A DNA stretch of 44,719 nt from NCBI GenBank assembly GCA_046583315.1, contig JAYGCN010000210.1:1-44719 (forward strand), in the 5' to 3' direction. The position numbers and the translations under genes are program-made. Origin of the DNA: Candidatus Hydrogenedentota bacterium (GTDB lineage: Bacteria > Hydrogenedentota > Hydrogenedentia > Hydrogenedentales > GCA-2746185). Positions 1-10,301 of this stretch are shown in pieces (position 1 is the stretch's first letter; the number at the start of each line of letters is the position of its first letter). Under the pieces are notes generated by a model. The model saw nothing but the letters and a program-made list of their open reading frames with translations. It was not told the DNA's origin and did no database searches.

Positions 1-71
1 TGCTGCGTTCCCCAGAGAAACACGAGGAAGAGGCCAAGCTCGACGAACAATGTAAGGTTAATCGTTACCAT
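1..71 (-). CDS. atpF: ATP synthase F0 subunit b/b' (5' part only, runs off the window edge)
   Basis: Hand translation from ATG at 71: MVTINLTLFVELGLFLVFLWGTQ..., a typical b-subunit membrane anchor; lies directly downstream of atpE. Confidence 0.8.
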   Translation of the reverse strand, partial: MVTINLTLFVELGLFLVFLWGTQ

Positions 72-93: not shown

Positions 94-429
<336 letters not shown>

Positions 430-454: not shown

Positions 455-1432
455 TTAAACAACAAATAAAACCACCAAGGCGATAATGAATGCATATATC
501 GCCGTCGATTGAGATACCGCTTGCCCGATGAGCATGGTGCGTAACATCAGCGCATCGTTCGCGGGTTTTTCGGCTATGGCTTCGCAACTCGTCTCACCCA
601 CGTGACCACAGCCAACGCCGGGTCCGATTCCGCCGACACCCACGGCGATTCCCGCTGCGATCACCTTGGCGAATCCAATAATGGTGGGTTCGAGATCGTT
701 CAGCGTGAAAAGCATGATAAAGGCGACCAGCATGCCGAAGATGGCCGGTGTACCGCAGACGGCTTGCGCGATAAGCATGGTGCGAATGGTGATGGGACGG
801 GAGACGGGCCAATTACCTTGCCCACGTACCGCGCCGCCTGCCGTCATTCCCGCGCCCACGCCGGGCCCGAGCGCACTGGCGCCCATGGCGAGTCCTGCGC
901 CGAGAGCGATGCCGATGCTGGCGAGTCCCGTGCTGGGAATAGGCAGAAATAACAACATTAGGGCTACTAGCGTTGCGAATATACTGGTGCTCTGGGCCAG
1001 GGCTTGCCCAATCATCATCGTGGTGGTGATGGAGGAAGCTTTTTCTGGATTACGCGCAACGGCTGCGCAGGCCTGAGCTGCTGGCATGCCGCCGCCGACA
1101 CCGCTACCAAAACATCCGAGACCCACTGCGAGTCCTGCGCCGACCATGGCGGAGGCAAAGACTGGGCCGGAGATGGCTTCGTTGACGGGAAGAAATAGAA
1201 TGAGAAGTCCAATAACCAACGCAAAGATGGAGGGGCTTGCGCCGACGGCCTGACCGAGCAACATGGTACGCAACAGGTCGCTGTGGCGCGAGGGTTGTTT
1301 CATCATCGAACGCGAGGCTTCGGCCCCGGCCATACCCATGCCCACGGCAGCACCGAGCCCGCCGAATCCCAATGCGAGACCCGCACCGATGTATCGGCCT
1401 ATGTAGTCCCATGTTTCAGGTGCCAAATCCAC
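455..1432 (-). CDS. Four-hairpin (8-TM) c-subunit paralogue lacking all ion-binding carboxylates
   Basis: Four ~81-aa repeats, each Gly-rich inner helix / xxP loop (KQP, RNP, NWP, EKP) / TM-xx-(G/A)QA outer helix; GTG start with AAAGG upstream; sits between atpB and atpE. Confidence 0.92.
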   Translation of the reverse strand: MDLAPETWDYIGRYIGAGLALGFGGLGAAVGMGMAGAEASRSMMKQPSRHSDLLRTMLLGQAVGASPSIFALVIGLLILFLPVNEAISGPVFASAMVGAGLAVGLGCFGSGVGGGMPAAQACAAVARNPEKASSITTTMMIGQALAQSTSIFATLVALMLLFLPIPSTGLASIGIALGAGLAMGASALGPGVGAGMTAGGAVRGQGNWPVSRPITIRTMLIAQAVCGTPAIFGMLVAFIMLFTLNDLEPTIIGFAKVIAAGIAVGVGGIGPGVGCGHVGETSCEAIAEKPANDALMLRTMLIGQAVSQSTAIYAFIIALVVLFVV

Positions 1433-2219: not shown

Positions 2220-2663
2220 TCAACTGTTCGGCTCTTGCGTATTGTCGTTTGCGTCATCCGTTTTGCGAAAACGTTGATCCAGGCCAAAGACCCCCACGAT
2301 CACCAGCACGAAGCGAATAATCATGATACCTATCAACGCGCCTATCAAGCCATGGTAGGCCTCGCGATCCAGCGCAAATCCTTTGTATAAAACAGCACCG
2401 TACAATGCGAATCGAAGAGTCGACAAGGTCAGCGCGGCGAACTTTACGTTTGACGGGTTATGCAGAACAATTTTTTCGAGCCGAACCGCGATGATCCAGA
2501 ATCCCAACAATCCGGCGATTCCGCCCAACAGGACACCCTGAGCGACAAGTGGATCGTAGAAATACGTGCCAAACGTCACTGCAGCCGTGACTGTCATGGT
2601 CACCCGAACCGTCATCAGACGAAAACGGCGAATGGGCTCTAAATTGTAGTTATTGCTATCCAT
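2220..2663 (-). CDS. atpI: ATP synthase protein I (AtpI/UncI)
   Basis: 147-aa four-TM protein immediately upstream of atpB; first gene of the operon. Confidence 0.78.
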   Translation of the reverse strand: MDSNNYNLEPIRRFRLMTVRVTMTVTAAVTFGTYFYDPLVAQGVLLGGIAGLLGFWIIAVRLEKIVLHNPSNVKFAALTLSTLRFALYGAVLYKGFALDREAYHGLIGALIGIMIIRFVLVIVGVFGLDQRFRKTDDANDNTQEPNS

Positions 2664-4941: not shown

Positions 4942-6039
4942 ATGATCACATCGCTGGATCGCTACATACTCAAACAGATACTGTTTCCGGCATCGATCGC
5001 GTTTTTTCTGATTGGATTTATGGCGATCGCGGCGGAGATTCAAGACAGTACAGATAATTTCCCGCGCGGTTTTTTGACGCCGGTCGATATTGGCTTCCTC
5101 GTGTTGTTTCTGTTCCCAAGCATTCTGGCCCTACTCATACCGATCGCATTTTTTGTGGGCATTCTGATGGCCTTCGGACGACTGGCGCAACAAGGCGAAA
5201 TAACCGCTATGCAAGCGGCCGGCATCTCGCTCAAACGGCTTACGCGCGCCATTCTGGTTGCCAGCGTAGTGCTAAGCGTGATCTGTTATGCCCTACAGGA
5301 CTGGTTGCAGCCTCTGGGGATGGCGCGCGCTTTCGACATCATGCACAACGACTTGCCACAACGCCTCACCATCGATAAACTGGACGCGGGCGAACTTCAC
5401 AATTACGAAGGTTGGCGAATTCATTTCGCGAGCAAGGACGAATCGACGCATACCTTGTATGATTTCGATCTCATTCAACCAGAAGGCACTGGCGTGGTGC
5501 TCTTTCACGCCGACGAAGCACAACTCACGCGAAGCGGTGACGAGTATACGCTACACCTGCGCTGGGGCTACAGCATTTCGCAACAGAATGTACATGTGCG
5601 CTTCGACGGACTGGATAAACCATTCCCGCTTCCCGCCGTACTTTCTTCGTCGAAAAACCATCGTAGTCTGGCAAATTTATCAACGATGATGAATCTGGAA
5701 AGTGACCTTTCAATGGACTATGCACAGAACTCTCAAAGGGCCGACAAAGAAGAGTTACGCCAGCTTCGCCGGGATATCGCAAAACGCATAAGCGAACCCT
5801 TTGCATGCCTGGCTGTTGCGCTCGTGGGAGCACCGCTGGGTGTACACGCCAGGCGCAAGGGCCGCACCTCGTTATTCAGCGTGGGCTTGGGCGTGCTCGT
5901 GTTGTATTACGCGTTGGTGACCGTCGCTGAGCCCACGGGATTGCGCGATCTGAGCACCTTCATTGCGCGCGCGTGGATACCGAACGTCGTATTGATGGGA
6001 ATAGGAATCGTCCTGTTGTGGAGGGTGGATCGCGCATGA
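4942..6039 (+). CDS. lptF: LPS export ABC permease, LptF/LptG family
   Basis: LDRYI N-terminus, GRL..GEITAMQAAGISL motif, AWIPN C-terminal motif. Confidence 0.85.
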   Translation: MITSLDRYILKQILFPASIAFFLIGFMAIAAEIQDSTDNFPRGFLTPVDIGFLVLFLFPSILALLIPIAFFVGILMAFGRLAQQGEITAMQAAGISLKRLTRAILVASVVLSVICYALQDWLQPLGMARAFDIMHNDLPQRLTIDKLDAGELHNYEGWRIHFASKDESTHTLYDFDLIQPEGTGVVLFHADEAQLTRSGDEYTLHLRWGYSISQQNVHVRFDGLDKPFPLPAVLSSSKNHRSLANLSTMMNLESDLSMDYAQNSQRADKEELRQLRRDIAKRISEPFACLAVALVGAPLGVHARRKGRTSLFSVGLGVLVLYYALVTVAEPTGLRDLSTFIARAWIPNVVLMGIGIVLLWRVDRA

Positions 6040-7133
6040 CGACGCTGGATCGATACTTGGCATGGCGCATCGCATCGACCTTTCTGAAGACCTGTGTATC
6101 TCTGATCTTGCTCTTCATCATCATCGATATTGTCACGCATCAACGCACGCGGATTATTGAGCAAGATGTGCCGGCACCAATCGTTATCGAATACTATCTG
6201 CTCATGATTCCGGTCATTCTGACCAACTACCAATTGGCACCCCTGTCGCTTCTGGTGTCAGGCCTTATGGTCTTCGGGAATTTCGTGCAACGAAGCGAAT
6301 ACACGGCGGCGCTTGCGGGCGGCATCGGACTAAAACGACTCCTTGTAGCGCCCCTGGGTGTCGCGCTCATCCTGAGTGGTTCATTGTTTGTCATGAACAA
6401 CTCCATCGGGGCCTATGCGGCGGAGCGCACGATTGAGATCGATGACCATTATTTCGGGAAAGCGCGGCGTGGCGATCGAAGCGCGCGCAATGGAATTTTC
6501 TGGCCCGGCCTTGAGAATGGGTGGAAATGCGACGTGCGCAAGTTCAATCGGCAGGCATTGACAGGCGAGAATATTTTTCTCTACGCAGTGCACGAGGGTC
6601 GCCATGAACAGATTCAGGCGCGCCGACTGTTCTGGGACGAGAATCAGGAAACGTGGTTTCTTGAGGATGGCAGTTGGTCGGTGTTTGATGATCAGCAGGA
6701 CAATCTAGGTCAGACCACCTCCTTTGCCCGAATTCGTGCACCCTTTCAGGCTTCACCGGACTATTTGCTGACTTCCGAGGTGAACACGGATACACGCTCA
6801 ATGGGCGAACTGGCGAAACTTCACGACAAACACGCTAGCCAGGGTTATACCGCGCGCCGCCTGTATCTGGACATGCATACCAAAGTGGTCGACCCGCTGT
6901 TGTGTGTGGTGTTTATGGGCTTGGCCGTGCCGTTTTCGATTCGACTGGGCCGGGGTAATGTCTCGGTCGGACTGAGCGTCGCCATCGCACTGGGCCTGGG
7001 GTATATTGTCCTTGCTGGCGTGACTCAAGGCATGGGCTATTCCGGCCAGATACCGCCGGGAATTGCAGCGTGGTTGCCCTTCGCCCTGTATTTTTTGGGG
7101 TGCTTTGGCCTGATTTACCGTACTCCGACCTGA
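6036..7133 (+). CDS. lptG: LPS export ABC permease, LptF/LptG family
   Basis: ATGA overlap with the upstream gene; LDRYL, SEYTAALAGGI, AAWLP motifs. Confidence 0.85.
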   Translation: MTTLDRYLAWRIASTFLKTCVSLILLFIIIDIVTHQRTRIIEQDVPAPIVIEYYLLMIPVILTNYQLAPLSLLVSGLMVFGNFVQRSEYTAALAGGIGLKRLLVAPLGVALILSGSLFVMNNSIGAYAAERTIEIDDHYFGKARRGDRSARNGIFWPGLENGWKCDVRKFNRQALTGENIFLYAVHEGRHEQIQARRLFWDENQETWFLEDGSWSVFDDQQDNLGQTTSFARIRAPFQASPDYLLTSEVNTDTRSMGELAKLHDKHASQGYTARRLYLDMHTKVVDPLLCVVFMGLAVPFSIRLGRGNVSVGLSVAIALGLGYIVLAGVTQGMGYSGQIPPGIAAWLPFALYFLGCFGLIYRTPT

Positions 7134-7257: not shown

Positions 7258-8805
7258 ATGAATGCTTACAGGAACGGTGTGATCTGTCTGGTCGCCGGAA
7301 TGATGCTGGCCGGATGTGTCACCAATCTTACCCCGCGCGCGCGCGAAGGCTGGACAGTGCCTCTGGACCATCTCGGTCTTAATGGGGACATTCGACGGCT
7401 TGATGAGCCGCATCGGTGGGAAGTACGCCAGGTATCCAGCTTTGATCGCACGGGTGGCAACAACGATGATCGCTATGGGCACCAGGTCTGGGACGGGGGT
7501 GCGATACTTGCAGACCTCGAAGGACCCGGCGTCGTGACACGCATCTGGTCGCGCAACCCACACGGTACAGTGTTCATTTTCGTTGATGATATCGAGCATC
7601 CAGTCATGGCGATGCCGTTTGCAACGATGTTTGCGGGCGAGACGGAATACGACGAACACAGTGTCAATCTTTTTAGCGCACCGTTTACGAATCAAGGCAG
7701 TGGCGGATACTTCAGCTACATGCCGATTCCCTACGAAAGCCGCTGTCGCATAATGGCCACGGGTATCGATGAGAGCCTGGGTTATCAGGTGACCTATGTT
7801 GATTTGCCTGCAGGGACGCCGATTCAGTCATTCGATTCGATGTTGTCGGAAGATGACATTCGGTTCTTCAAACGCTGGCAGGATAATTGGGAATTCACGA
7901 ATTACCGCTGGAGTGATCGCAAGACGGAGGAAGTGTGGAAATCGCGTCACAAGTATAACCCCGGCGAAGATTATCAGGTTATTCCGCTTCGCGGTTCCGG
8001 CGTGATTACGGAAATCGAAATATCGATTGAATCGGCTGATGAAGACACAATGGACGGGGTATGGTTGGCCATCTTTTTTGACGGGCAGGAAGACCCGGGT
8101 GTATTGACGCCCATTGGCGATTTTTTTGCGGCCTCCTCCAAAGATGTAGACGATTATGACAGCCTTGTGCTGGGTCGCAGTGAAGGCCGAATGTGGTGTC
8201 GCTACCCGATGCCCTATCGTGAGTCAGCAGAAATTCGATTCATCAACACGACCGATCAAATCGCGGATATCACCTACGCCGTAACGTATCGACCGGAAGA
8301 AGTGGCGCATGACAACTACTTCTTCGCACGGTACAACAGTGCTGAAACGGTAGAGGGCGTCCCTTACGAGGTACTCTCGGTCAATGGGGAAGGCCACTTC
8401 GTCGGAGCATCCATCTCTGCATCGAATGCGGATTCGCTCATCATTCTTGAAGGTGATGATTCGTATTCAGTCGATGGTCGCAGCCCTCAGGAATTTCACG
8501 GAACCGGTACGGACGACTATTTCAACGCGGGATGGTATTTCGCGGAAGGCTCCTCCTCCAGCCCAACGCATGGCGTGGCGCTCAAGGATGCCAAGAAACC
8601 CAACGGCTTCTCCGCGTTCCGCAGTCACTTTACGGAACCGGTAACCTTCGAAAAATCGTTCGTGTTTAATCTCGAACACGGGCCGAATAACGACCGTCCT
8701 GGCGTGCAGTACTCAAGCGTGTCTTACTGGTACCAGAATGATCGCACACCATCGCTGCGGGCTATTCCTGAAATTCAGGGCGTGCCGTTGCGAAAGGCGG
8801 ATTAA
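7258..8805 (+). CDS. DUF2961 / GH172-like glycoside hydrolase lipoprotein
   Basis: Lipobox LAGC; SSFDRTGGNND, GPGVVTRIW, EGDD, HGTGTDDYFN, LEHG, SVSYWY motifs; PMP(Y/F) module occurs twice. Confidence 0.85.
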   Translation: MNAYRNGVICLVAGMMLAGCVTNLTPRAREGWTVPLDHLGLNGDIRRLDEPHRWEVRQVSSFDRTGGNNDDRYGHQVWDGGAILADLEGPGVVTRIWSRNPHGTVFIFVDDIEHPVMAMPFATMFAGETEYDEHSVNLFSAPFTNQGSGGYFSYMPIPYESRCRIMATGIDESLGYQVTYVDLPAGTPIQSFDSMLSEDDIRFFKRWQDNWEFTNYRWSDRKTEEVWKSRHKYNPGEDYQVIPLRGSGVITEIEISIESADEDTMDGVWLAIFFDGQEDPGVLTPIGDFFAASSKDVDDYDSLVLGRSEGRMWCRYPMPYRESAEIRFINTTDQIADITYAVTYRPEEVAHDNYFFARYNSAETVEGVPYEVLSVNGEGHFVGASISASNADSLIILEGDDSYSVDGRSPQEFHGTGTDDYFNAGWYFAEGSSSSPTHGVALKDAKKPNGFSAFRSHFTEPVTFEKSFVFNLEHGPNNDRPGVQYSSVSYWYQNDRTPSLRAIPEIQGVPLRKAD

Positions 8806-8882: not shown

Positions 8883-10301
8883 CTAAAAAGGGTATTCGGC
8901 CATATAGTCCATGGCCCCGTAGAGGAACATGCGGACCATTTCAGGGTCACCCGTATCGAGCCCCGCCGCGCCGCCCCCGTAAACGCCACCGCTATCCGGG
9001 GTTTCTTTCGTCGTCGTCTTCGCGTACTCAACCGCTTCCGCGAGATCAGACACGAAACGATCAGCGACACCTTCTTTCGTCTGCGGTCGCGTGACGCACA
9101 TGTGAATGGCGCCGGGATTTTGCTGTCCGTTGAAGCGCCATCCGCGTTGGACCATAAAATCGTTGACGTGATAAATGTTGAATTCGTCGCTCGCAAACGA
9201 GAAGCACCAGGTCGGTTTGCCCATCAGCTTTAACTCGGGATGACTTTTCACGGCATCCTGCATCTTGAATGCCGTTTCAAATATTTCCTTGGCATGTTTC
9301 ATGTAGCCTTCTTTGCCCATTGTGACCATTGAGGCCCAGGTGGCTGCGATGAGGCCGCCGGAACGACTGCCCAGCAATCCTGTGGAGGCATAGGATCCGC
9401 CCTTCCAGTCGGGCCAGGCGAAATACTGGTGCGTGCGAAACGACTTGTCACGCAGCAGTAGCGTAGACGTACCTTTCAGTCCGTAGCCGTATTTGTGGGT
9501 GTCCGCCGAAATCGAAGTCACACCTGGCAACCTGAAATCCCAGATCGGAATATCATAACCCAGTGCCTCGCCCCAGGGAAGAATGTATCCGCCGAGACAG
9601 CCATCGACGTGCAGACCGACGTTTTTCTCAAGGGCCAATTCCGAAAGTTTCTCGATGGGGTCAATCGTGCCGTAGGGGTAGTTACCCGCAGACCCGACGA
9701 TGGCTATGGTATTTTCGTTGATGTGATCGCGTACCCAATCCACATCCACGAGTGTCGTCTCGTCGTCTACCGGCGCAAAAATGACTTCGATGTTGAACAG
9801 GTGTCCTGCTTTCACGAAGGCCGCATGTGCGGTGTCCGGCATAATCAGATTCGGCTCTGTAATACCCTGTTCGGCCTTGGCCTTATTGCGATAAATCAAC
9901 ATCGCGTTCAGAATACTCTCCGTGCCGCCTGCTCCAATCACGCCGCAGGGGGTCTCTCCGGGATGATGTTCCTTGACCGCGTCGCCGTGCAACATATCGA
10001 GTGCCATCGCGATGATCTCAGATTCAAAACGGTTCATGCTCATGCACATATCGCGCTGAATCGAGTTGACGTGGGAATACTGACCGTAAACCTCGTTCAA
10101 GAATTCGTAATGCTCGTGGTCGCCGCAGTACATCGTGCCTGAGCAGGAACCGTCTTCCCACCTGGCGTCTTCTGCGGTCGACATGGCCTCAACTTGTTTC
10201 AAGACTTCTTCACGACTCATGCCTTTCTCCGGCATGTTCTTGAGCACTCCGTATTCGTCTGCGTAGGGATACAAACCGCGCAATAATTTTTCAATGTCCA
10301 T
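8883..10301 (-). CDS. Sphingosine-1-phosphate lyase-like PLP enzyme (group II decarboxylase fold)
   Basis: GGTESI, TAHAAF, HVDGCLGG, TSISADTHKYG (PLP Lys) and GSRSG motifs, characteristic of the S1P lyase subfamily. Confidence 0.85.
   Translation of the reverse strand: MDIEKLLRGLYPYADEYGVLKNMPEKGMSREEVLKQVEAMSTAEDARWEDGSCSGTMYCGDHEHYEFLNEVYGQYSHVNSIQRDMCMSMNRFESEIIAMALDMLHGDAVKEHHPGETPCGVIGAGGTESILNAMLIYRNKAKAEQGITEPNLIMPDTAHAAFVKAGHLFNIEVIFAPVDDETTLVDVDWVRDHINENTIAIVGSAGNYPYGTIDPIEKLSELALEKNVGLHVDGCLGGYILPWGEALGYDIPIWDFRLPGVTSISADTHKYGYGLKGTSTLLLRDKSFRTHQYFAWPDWKGGSYASTGLLGSRSGGLIAATWASMVTMGKEGYMKHAKEIFETAFKMQDAVKSHPELKLMGKPTWCFSFASDEFNIYHVNDFMVQRGWRFNGQQNPGAIHMCVTRPQTKEGVADRFVSDLAEAVEYAKTTTKETPDSGGVYGGGAAGLDTGDPEMVRMFLYGAMDYMAEYPF

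Follow-up and report, generated by a model that had tools for sequence, protein, structure and literature searches.

A four-hairpin c subunit without ion-binding carboxylates in a Na+ F1Fo ATPase operon of Hydrogenedentota, probably a c1-type rotor subunit

We analyzed a 44,719-nucleotide stretch of DNA from a Candidatus Hydrogenedentota bacterium (GenBank assembly GCA_046583315.1, contig JAYGCN010000210.1, positions 1 to 44,719; hereafter the window) and found in its F-type ATP synthase operon a gene for four fused c-subunit hairpins, c4, in which no ion site retains a carboxylate. Based on its sequence and on analogy with the c1 subunit of Acetobacterium woodii, we consider it probable, at roughly 55%, that each c-ring of this Na+ F1Fo ATPase incorporates one c4, a c1-type subunit, as an ion-blind segment. 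Membership in the ring, the single copy per ring, the ring size and the working direction of the enzyme are parts of this reading that we infer. The protein most likely works like c1 yet lacks two features that define c1, namely two hairpins and one intact site. The features of the locus are as follows:

455..1432, minus strand: c4, four-hairpin c1-like subunit, 325 aa, GTG start, all ion sites without carboxylate
1193..1420, minus strand: c4 hairpin 1, residues 5-80; inner M32, outer A65 (codon 1238-1240), then S-P-x-x-F; loop M-K-Q-P
947..1165, minus strand: c4 hairpin 2, residues 90-162; inner G114, outer Q147 (codon 992-994); loop R-N-P
707..925, minus strand: c4 hairpin 3, residues 170-242; inner A194, outer G227 (codon 752-754); the sole labile site
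464..682, minus strand: c4 hairpin 4, residues 251-323; inner C275, outer Q308 (codon 509-511); 52% identical to atpE
494..508, minus strand: S309-T310-x-x-Y313, putative ligand donors to an adjoining canonical c, the Na+ site of which they would complete (ligand roles from the available part of PMC3692424)
1442..1446, minus strand: weak ribosome-binding site of c4 (AAAGG), overlapping the atpB stop codon
423..454, minus strand: c4-atpE spacer, with a predicted 5-bp stem (438-454, -4.5 kcal/mol) and the atpE ribosome-binding site (423-431)
94..417, minus strand: atpE, canonical c, with the full two-carboxylate Na+ motif E55 / E88-S89-T90-x-x-Y93, as in Fusobacterium nucleatum
1..71, minus strand: 5' end of atpF' (b'); the operon goes on in contig C284
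1445..2200, minus strand: atpB, subunit a (PF00119), keeping the essential Arg (S-F-R194-L-F-G-N), E184 and Q234
2220..2663, minus strand: atpI, c-ring assembly factor family (PF03899, 27.5 bits)

The c4 reading frame contains no internal stop codon, a profile search placed four PF00137 stretches above the cut-off (E = 1e-51), and the gene order on the minus strand of the window is atpI, atpB, c4, atpE, all in agreement with the earlier note, which had described a 325-residue protein of four c hairpins between atpB and atpE. The protein has the Gly-rich inner helices and Pro loops of the subunit c fold, and an AlphaFold2 model based on a 78-sequence alignment predicted eight long helices forming four hairpins (pLDDT 95, pTM 0.90). 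In the alignment to atpE, the outer-helix site of E88 is occupied by A65, Q147, G227 and Q308 and the inner-helix site of E55 by M32, G114, A194 and C275, exactly the residues that the note had named. None of the 13 Asp and Glu residues of c4 occupies either ligand site; they are confined to the N-terminus, loops and helix ends, and c4 thus lacks the mid-helix outer Glu or Asp of an ion-translocating c subunit. The hairpins are 32–39% identical among themselves and 36–52% identical to atpE, low values that indicate an old fusion. We ruled out a sequencing error, as 86 of the best 120 homologues also have no outer carboxylate.

The arrangement of the ligands around the empty sites provides the main support for a c1-type role. 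The Na+ site, according to the available part of PMC3692424, is formed at the interface of two hairpins: both acids belong to one, the other contributes a Ser and a backbone carbonyl, and Thr and Tyr complete the network. For fused subunits, the donor rule is that the [STQ][STQ]xxY of a hairpin serves the Glu of a hairpin after it (bioRxiv 10.64898/2026.10.01.756066, in the portion accessible). Among the best 120 c4 homologues, the S-T-x-x-Y donor motif was found in hairpin 4 of 115 sequences and in hairpins 1, 2 and 3 of 1, 0 and 0, and hairpins 1–3 of c4 read S/T-P-x-x-F in its place. The donors of hairpin 4, which itself lacks an acid, would be without purpose unless they faced the Glu of an ordinary c. 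The ligand evidence ties only this end of c4 to a neighbor, the acceptor acids of hairpin 1 having been lost in the taxonomic order of the source organism.

The best match of c4 in the PDB, both by sequence (4BEM_J, E = 1e-21) and by fold (rmsd 1.5 Å over 157 columns), is A. woodii c1, one of the ten subunits of a ring with 1:9 stoichiometry (available parts of PMC8904574 and PMC9317959). The polarity of 4BEM_J runs from A-E-T-S-G-I-F in the first hairpin to A-Q-T-T-G-I-Y in the last. Like c4, the c1 genes of A. woodii (AtpE1, 4BEM chain J) and Clostridium aceticum lie between atpB and a canonical Na+ atpE; the position of a multi-hairpin c between atpB and a one-hairpin Na+ atpE of an F-type operon was found in the window and in 29/29 complete c4 loci. 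In both proteins, the last of the fused hairpins has Gln for Glu and S/T-T-x-x-Y donors (Q308-S309-T310-x-x-Y313 in c4) and an earlier hairpin has Phe for Tyr. The differences are that c4 has four hairpins, not two, and no carboxylate, a state also seen in 86/120 of the best homologues, whereas c1 keeps one; where c1 has an intact first Na+ acceptor, c4 has M32 and A65, and, if it joins the ring, it would bring in four contiguous empty sites against one. The earlier likening to A. woodii c1 is therefore borne out, and the suggestion that c4 is a ring insert gains support from the c1 polarity and from donors confined to hairpin 4; the added claim that such an insert favors pumping finds no such support.

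Other rotary ATPases resemble c4 less. The proteolipids of V-type and archaeal A-type enzymes (Enterococcus hirae NtpK, 2BL2; eukaryotic c, c' and c''; methanogen c of 2, 3 and 13 hairpins) also have fused hairpins and lost ion sites, with a weaker sequence and fold match to c4 than that of c1. They are main ring subunits with the empty sites spread evenly, whereas c4 belongs to an F-type operon, stands beside an ordinary c and has its empty sites in one arc. Against models of the V/A proteolipid, subunit K, c4 scored 108 bits where the cut-off is 211 (PRK06271) and 98 where it is 188 (PRK14893), and the V/A K genes of the source genome are separate, on C293 and C335. These belong to two similar V/A-type sets (G-I-K-E-C-F; G000:C293, G000:C335 and C107:1848-2420), each with a one-hairpin K of motif I-P-E-T-I, the second of which could represent either a genuine duplication or contaminating sequence (5.4%). 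The partner atpE has the two-carboxylate E/E-S-T-x-x-Y motif in common with the F. nucleatum c11 ring (3ZK1), which is homomeric and has no fused partner. N-ATPases (atpDCQRBEFAG) are likewise comparable in their Na+-type c motif and as accessory enzymes of patchy distribution; they differ from the c4 operon, which has the standard order, includes a full-length delta (PF00213) that the D-C-Q-R-B-E-F-A-G order lacks, and ends in alpha-gamma-beta-epsilon. Six of these genomes have true N-type operons at separate loci (L151-L156).

A homologue search gave 543 matches, and ligand sites were counted on the best 120 (58–100% identical), all of which have four hairpins. Their outer-site patterns were GQQQ (68), GQEQ (18), SQQQ (13), GQDQ (9), SQEQ (5), AQGQ (4), and EQQQ, GQGQ and DQDQ (1 each); outer carboxylates were thus absent from 86 of these best 120 of 543, single in 33 and double in 1, and 0/120 had a carboxylate in the inner-helix window. 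The absence of carboxylates noted previously is true of c4 and is the commonest state of the family, and it is not fixed, 34/120 of the best homologues having one or two; counting one locus per genome, 14/29 have a zero-carboxylate c4. Q308 of hairpin 4 and both Q147 and R127 of hairpin 2 were found in 120/120 of the best homologues, and hairpin 1 has M32 in 118 and an outer G in 96, S in 18, A in 4, D in 1 and E in 1. The outer site of hairpin 3 is Q in 82, E in 23, D in 10 and G in 5, the c4 of the window included in the last. On a tree of 30 operons, the hairpin-3 acid changed at least five times and the Gly of the window lineage sits among Asp-bearing closest relatives, from which we conclude that this acid is nonessential.

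One alternative is that the Gln hairpins still carry Na+ through neutral ligands (Gln, Ser and backbone carbonyl), so that the arc is not blind. The invariance of Q147 and Q308 (120/120) and the +1 Ser/Thr kept in nearly all hairpins agree with this; the inner-helix ligands are, however, Met, Cys, Ser or Gly, hairpins 1–3 have Pro and Phe for the Thr and Tyr donors, and placing a cation in lipid without charge compensation is energetically costly. The Gln hairpin of c1 is moreover described as unable to bind H+ or Na+ (PMC7911925, available part), and we regard neutral-ligand transport as very improbable.

The whole protein is evidently under constraint. The outer-helix face Q-A-V-x-x-S/T and the loop proline are kept in all four hairpins, 56 columns are invariant in 78 c4 sequences at 59–90% identity, and hairpin 1 is the best conserved, with a mean identity of 75% against 65–71% for the others. 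Pairwise dN/dS had a median of 0.24 and a maximum of 0.40 among the 168 of 435 pairs with pS < 0.65, the other 267 being left out as near saturation; median dN was 0.31 for c4, 0.27 for subunit a and 0.15 for c. Two of the checks proposed in the earlier note, the ligand-site tabulation and dN/dS, showed a four-hairpin family that mostly lacks outer carboxylates and purifying selection similar to that on subunit a, with no decay. The idea that c4 is a functionless atpE duplicate in decay could appeal to the lost catalytic acids and to the complete loss of c4 in one clade of 26 operons, but with a frame intact in 29/29 complete loci, dN/dS of ~0.24 and the 56 invariant columns, it is refuted by the conservation data and given almost no weight. 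The closest c4 loci are titled Hydrogenedentota or bear MAG labels such as "Nitrospirales" and "uncultured bacterium."

A profile search of 1.84 billion representatives revealed a wider family of multi-hairpin c subunits with two to five hairpins and zero to all acids. In 45/45 multi-hairpin ORFs from outside Hydrogenedentota (L058-L106), mostly titled Desulfobacterales and with three to five hairpins, the Glu was in hairpin 1 only (EQQQ in 36, EQQQQ in 5 and three hairpins in 4), and both ends of these subunits therefore fit ordinary c neighbors; the scan pattern held Q-S-T, making the last-hairpin motif in L027-L106 partly built in. Two basal genomes of Hydrogenedentota have three hairpins, E-Q-Q, and both they and the Desulfobacterales have the first Glu of c1 but not its hairpin number. 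Hairpin 1 of c4 might alternatively have become the first hairpin through loss of a preceding Glu-bearing one; the mean identities speak for orthology with outgroup first hairpins (50–51% versus 41–48%), while a tree of 68 columns instead groups hairpin 1 with internal hairpins. As far as can be read from the sequences, c4 is the end of a c1-like series of two to five hairpins in which internal hairpins were added and the last acid was then lost. The series includes a cultured organism, Desulfatitalea alkaliphila M08but (L062), with a five-hairpin form and one Glu.

Related architectures also came to light. Four Desulfobacterales (L062, L072, L093 and L103) encode the multi-hairpin c at a locus limited to Fo genes and a plain c at a second Fo locus of their genome; a single F1 may serve both Fo motors in these bacteria. 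P0191, P0196 and ~50 similar proteins of 307–329 aa form a separate four-hairpin family, mostly E-Q-E-D/E, with one cluster named TM6/Dependentiae, for which the likely use of the ATPase is holding a proton gradient (PMC4776705, available part). Other carboxylate-free multi-hairpin c subunits have three or four hairpins (P0123, P0137, P0151, P0163 and P0176; P0163 named candidate division CSSED10-310), and complete loss of the acids may have happened repeatedly. Five proteins (P0144, P0167, P0181, P0216 and P0218) fuse 7 to 15 c/K hairpins, most of which keep Glu; P0216 has ten near-identical K-type repeats, and some of these proteins may be assembly artefacts.

The c4 gene is embedded in its operon. 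The operon order is Z-I-B-c4-E-F'-F-H-A-G-D-C, with b', b, delta, alpha, gamma and beta on contig C284, the start of which overlaps the end of the window, and epsilon on C313, and it is the one F-type set found in the source genome. The gene starts 12 bases after atpB; promoter predictions for c4 were not above chance (3 found versus 2.4 expected), and terminators around it were not above shuffled sequences. The earlier observation of an intact frame with a ribosome-binding site stands for the frame, and the site is present yet weak (duplex -3.9 versus -5.6 kcal/mol for atpE). At the homologous start of c4, GTG or TTG was found in 26/29 operons, ATG in 2 and no common start in 1, in comparison with ATG in 29/30 atpB, 20/22 b' and 14/15 called gamma genes. 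In loci outside Hydrogenedentota, ATG is kept and the ribosome-binding site of atpE was stronger than that of the multi-hairpin c in 27/27 (medians -11.6 versus -4.6 kcal/mol); within Hydrogenedentota, no such difference was seen (atpE stronger in 16/28). This suggests that few c4 are made per many c, as signaled by the start codon in Hydrogenedentota and by the ribosome-binding site elsewhere.

Elsewhere in the genome, V/A-type genes, an Nqr-like operon (C192:11994-17960) and haem-copper oxidases, with five subunit I matches (C262, C97, C329, C342 and C351), accompany the c4 operon, and no NuoH match was found; from this gene content, respiration seems to enter via a Na+ pump. Subunit b of Hydrogenedentota F-ATPases (G000:C284:493-1272; L011:10862-11617) is ~250-260 aa long, with an extra N-terminal membrane helix and an insert of ~70 residues ahead of the usual b helix; this extra part has no Pfam match and occurs with and without c4. 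The neighbors of the operon in the window are a DUF2961 protein (7258-8805, plus strand), unrelated to c4, and genes that we take to be two LptF/LptG-like permeases (4942-7133, plus strand) and a PLP-dependent decarboxylase/lyase-like gene (8883-10301, minus strand), equally unrelated.

In the proposed mechanism, c4 would replace four ordinary hairpins once per ring, with hairpin 4 packing against the next ordinary c and giving it the Ser, Thr and Tyr ligands. Every ordinary c would keep its full Na+ site and the four c4 positions would stay empty, the neutral Gln (or Gly/Ala where the pocket is occupied by Met) allowing them to move through the lipid and pass the subunit a Arg with no ion bound. 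The rotor would be asymmetric, its ion-blind arc covering about a quarter to a third of the rim, and fewer Na+ would be moved per ATP: for one c4 in rings of an assumed 11, 13 and 15 hairpins, we computed arcs of 131, 111 and 96 degrees and Na+/ATP ratios of 2.3, 3.0 and 3.7. Such an enzyme would pump Na+ freely under ATP hydrolysis, while ATP synthesis would be slow and confined to low phosphorylation potentials unless elastic coupling bridged the gap.

The difficulty lies in the torque. In a toy rotor model with a uniform F1 load, an assumed diffusion constant and no elasticity, four blind positions made synthesis ~4x10^3- to 4x10^6-fold slower where it still ran, or reversed it, whereas one blind position made it ~2- to 60-fold slower. 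As described in the available parts of the respective papers, one E56Q hairpin abolishes ATP synthesis in a fused Bacillus PS3 c10 ring (PMC8809890), and the A. woodii enzyme with one blind site synthesizes ATP (PMC9171764). The engineered PS3 ring is like c4 in its fused hairpins and Gln at the ion site, but there a single Gln is enough to stop synthesis, while in the c4 family purifying selection maintains three or four consecutive blind hairpins. A second subunit a driving the rotor past the gap is not indicated: the two-stalk design of Chloroflexus aurantiacus goes with a shortened delta N-domain (PMC12002316, available part), and the delta of the c4 operon is full length (178 aa in L011, PF00213 positions 1-172 of 172).

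A permanent ring segment thus sits badly with fast synthesis, and the tension is removed, at the cost of departing from c1, if c4 instead seeds or templates the assembly of rings together with AtpI, a template role that the earlier note had also raised. The arc would set the curvature, ordinary c would add at the hairpin-4 end via the Na+-bridged interface, and c4 would then be displaced or kept in some rings only, the working synthase having an all-c ring. This would account for ligands at the hairpin-4 end only, the weak start codon and the labile hairpin-3 acid, and it does not conflict with genomes in which the c4 operon is the only rotary ATPase found; the A. woodii ring also requires its own AtpI (PMC8904574, available part). 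On the other hand, the two-hairpin homologue c1 is a fixed member of a solved ring, the acceptor site of hairpin 1 is complete in outgroup forms, this hairpin remains the best conserved of the four in c4, and atpI is kept in c4-less operons. We hold assembly seeding to be a tentative alternative, worth pursuing if rather unlikely. Deletion of A. woodii c1, in work of Brandt from 2016, reportedly left an unstable, poorly transporting enzyme, and a structural role would be favored if that is right.

The distribution of c4 bears on how the enzyme is used. Among 109 genomes of the phylum at least 85% complete, 59 had an atpB match: c4 was present in 28 of these (truncated at a contig end in one), 26 had the same operon without c4, 2 had the three-hairpin form and 3 had an N-type operon only. 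The partner c had the full Na+ motif in 29/29 complete c4 loci and in 1/26 operons without c4. The 26 c4-less operons form one clade on the tree of subunit a and on that of alpha (UFBoot 100, 22 sequences), and the association of c4 with the full motif therefore represents one evolutionary event; the alpha tree did not discriminate between a nested and a sister position of this clade relative to the c4 lineages (support 55 and 22). The essential Arg of subunit a is kept in the c4 operons, and consensus comparison of gamma, epsilon and delta between c4 and c4-less operons, a contrast of one clade, gave no clear c4-specific motif. In the c4-less clade itself (L107-L126, L147, L150, L020-L023), subunit a evolves faster, reads S-C-R-L-F-G-N and carries an F-E motif ahead of Q-A-F-V-F, and the Na+ motif of c is degenerate in 25/26, perhaps reflecting a switch towards H+.

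V-type subunit D was found in 92/109 genomes and not in 10 of the 28 with c4; a V/A-type ATPase is thus present in 18/28 c4 genomes, the source genome included, and two of the ten others have an N-type operon. No other rotary ATPase was found in the remaining 8/28, which are MAGs in which absence is not proof. These eight have exactly five PF00137 matches, four in c4 and one in c, and seven of them have a zero-acid c4. In one, G024 (a single contig, 94% complete), the PF00006 matches were alpha, beta and two genes standing alone at other places, whose sizes and scores resemble those of FliI and Rho. NqrB/RnfD was present in all five of the ten genomes checked, four of them among the eight, and haem-copper oxidases were found in one of the five, G019, which is among the eight and has a c4 with one Glu in hairpin 3. 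The earlier proposal that c4 favors ATP-driven pumping is weakened by these eight genomes and by the NqrB/RnfD-type Na+ pumps encoded in the four that were examined.

The same genomes argue against the proposal of a brake: with no other rotary ATPase found in 8/28 carriers, a constitutively stalled enzyme is unlikely. In a regulated version, rings with c4 would stall at subunit a, stopping ATP waste or Na+ leak, and c4-free rings would work, the ratio between them being controlled. The single Gln hairpin that blocks PS3 synthesis (PMC8809890, available part), near-zero rates in both directions close to equilibrium in the toy model and the V/A-type ATPase of 18/28 carriers speak for such a valve. 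Its improbability in our judgment comes from the location of c4 inside the operon, 12 bases past atpB and with no promoter above chance, from a constraint equal to that on subunit a and from its retention where no second rotary enzyme was found.

Returning to c4 as a ring segment, a stronger claim is that a natural F1Fo with a four-hairpin ion-free stretch still makes ATP as the only rotary ATPase of its host, which we think unlikely though deserving attention. If true, the rotor would have to cross ~100-130 degrees, near one catalytic step, without ion-driven torque, either by elastic storage or with the blind arc locked to one catalytic phase via gamma/epsilon docking on the conserved c4 loops. 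The rule that every F-type hairpin needs a carboxylate would be broken, and the series of two to five hairpins would be a natural Na+/ATP gearbox.

Our literature search found no description of an F-type c with four hairpins or no acid; the Brandt and Muller 2015 survey of hybrid rotors, outside that search, could list longer c1. None is mentioned in the available parts of PMC9171764, PMC3692424, PMC5129741, PMC4154653, PMC8904574, PMC8809890, PMC7911925, PMC4776705, PMC12002316, PMC9317959 and bioRxiv 10.1101/2024.02.27.582367. The accessible text of bioRxiv 10.64898/2026.10.01.756066 mentions multi-hairpin structures without naming the c4 taxa, and its supplements may bear on c4.

The ion cost of ATP in F-type enzymes is attributed to the size of the ring, and to our knowledge there is one known hybrid ring, with a single site of eleven lost. 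In the widespread c4 family, three or four neighboring sites are lost, down to an acid-free subunit. Either these rotors cross a long ion-free gap, providing a direct test of Brownian-ratchet and elastic-coupling models, or c1-type subunits are ring seeds or rotor anchors first and ion carriers second, giving a new reading of A. woodii c1. The torque question is testable because a cultured carrier exists in D. alkaliphila M08but. Either way, ion/ATP ratios predicted from atpE alone would be wrong for these anaerobes, including the Desulfobacterales of marine sediments.
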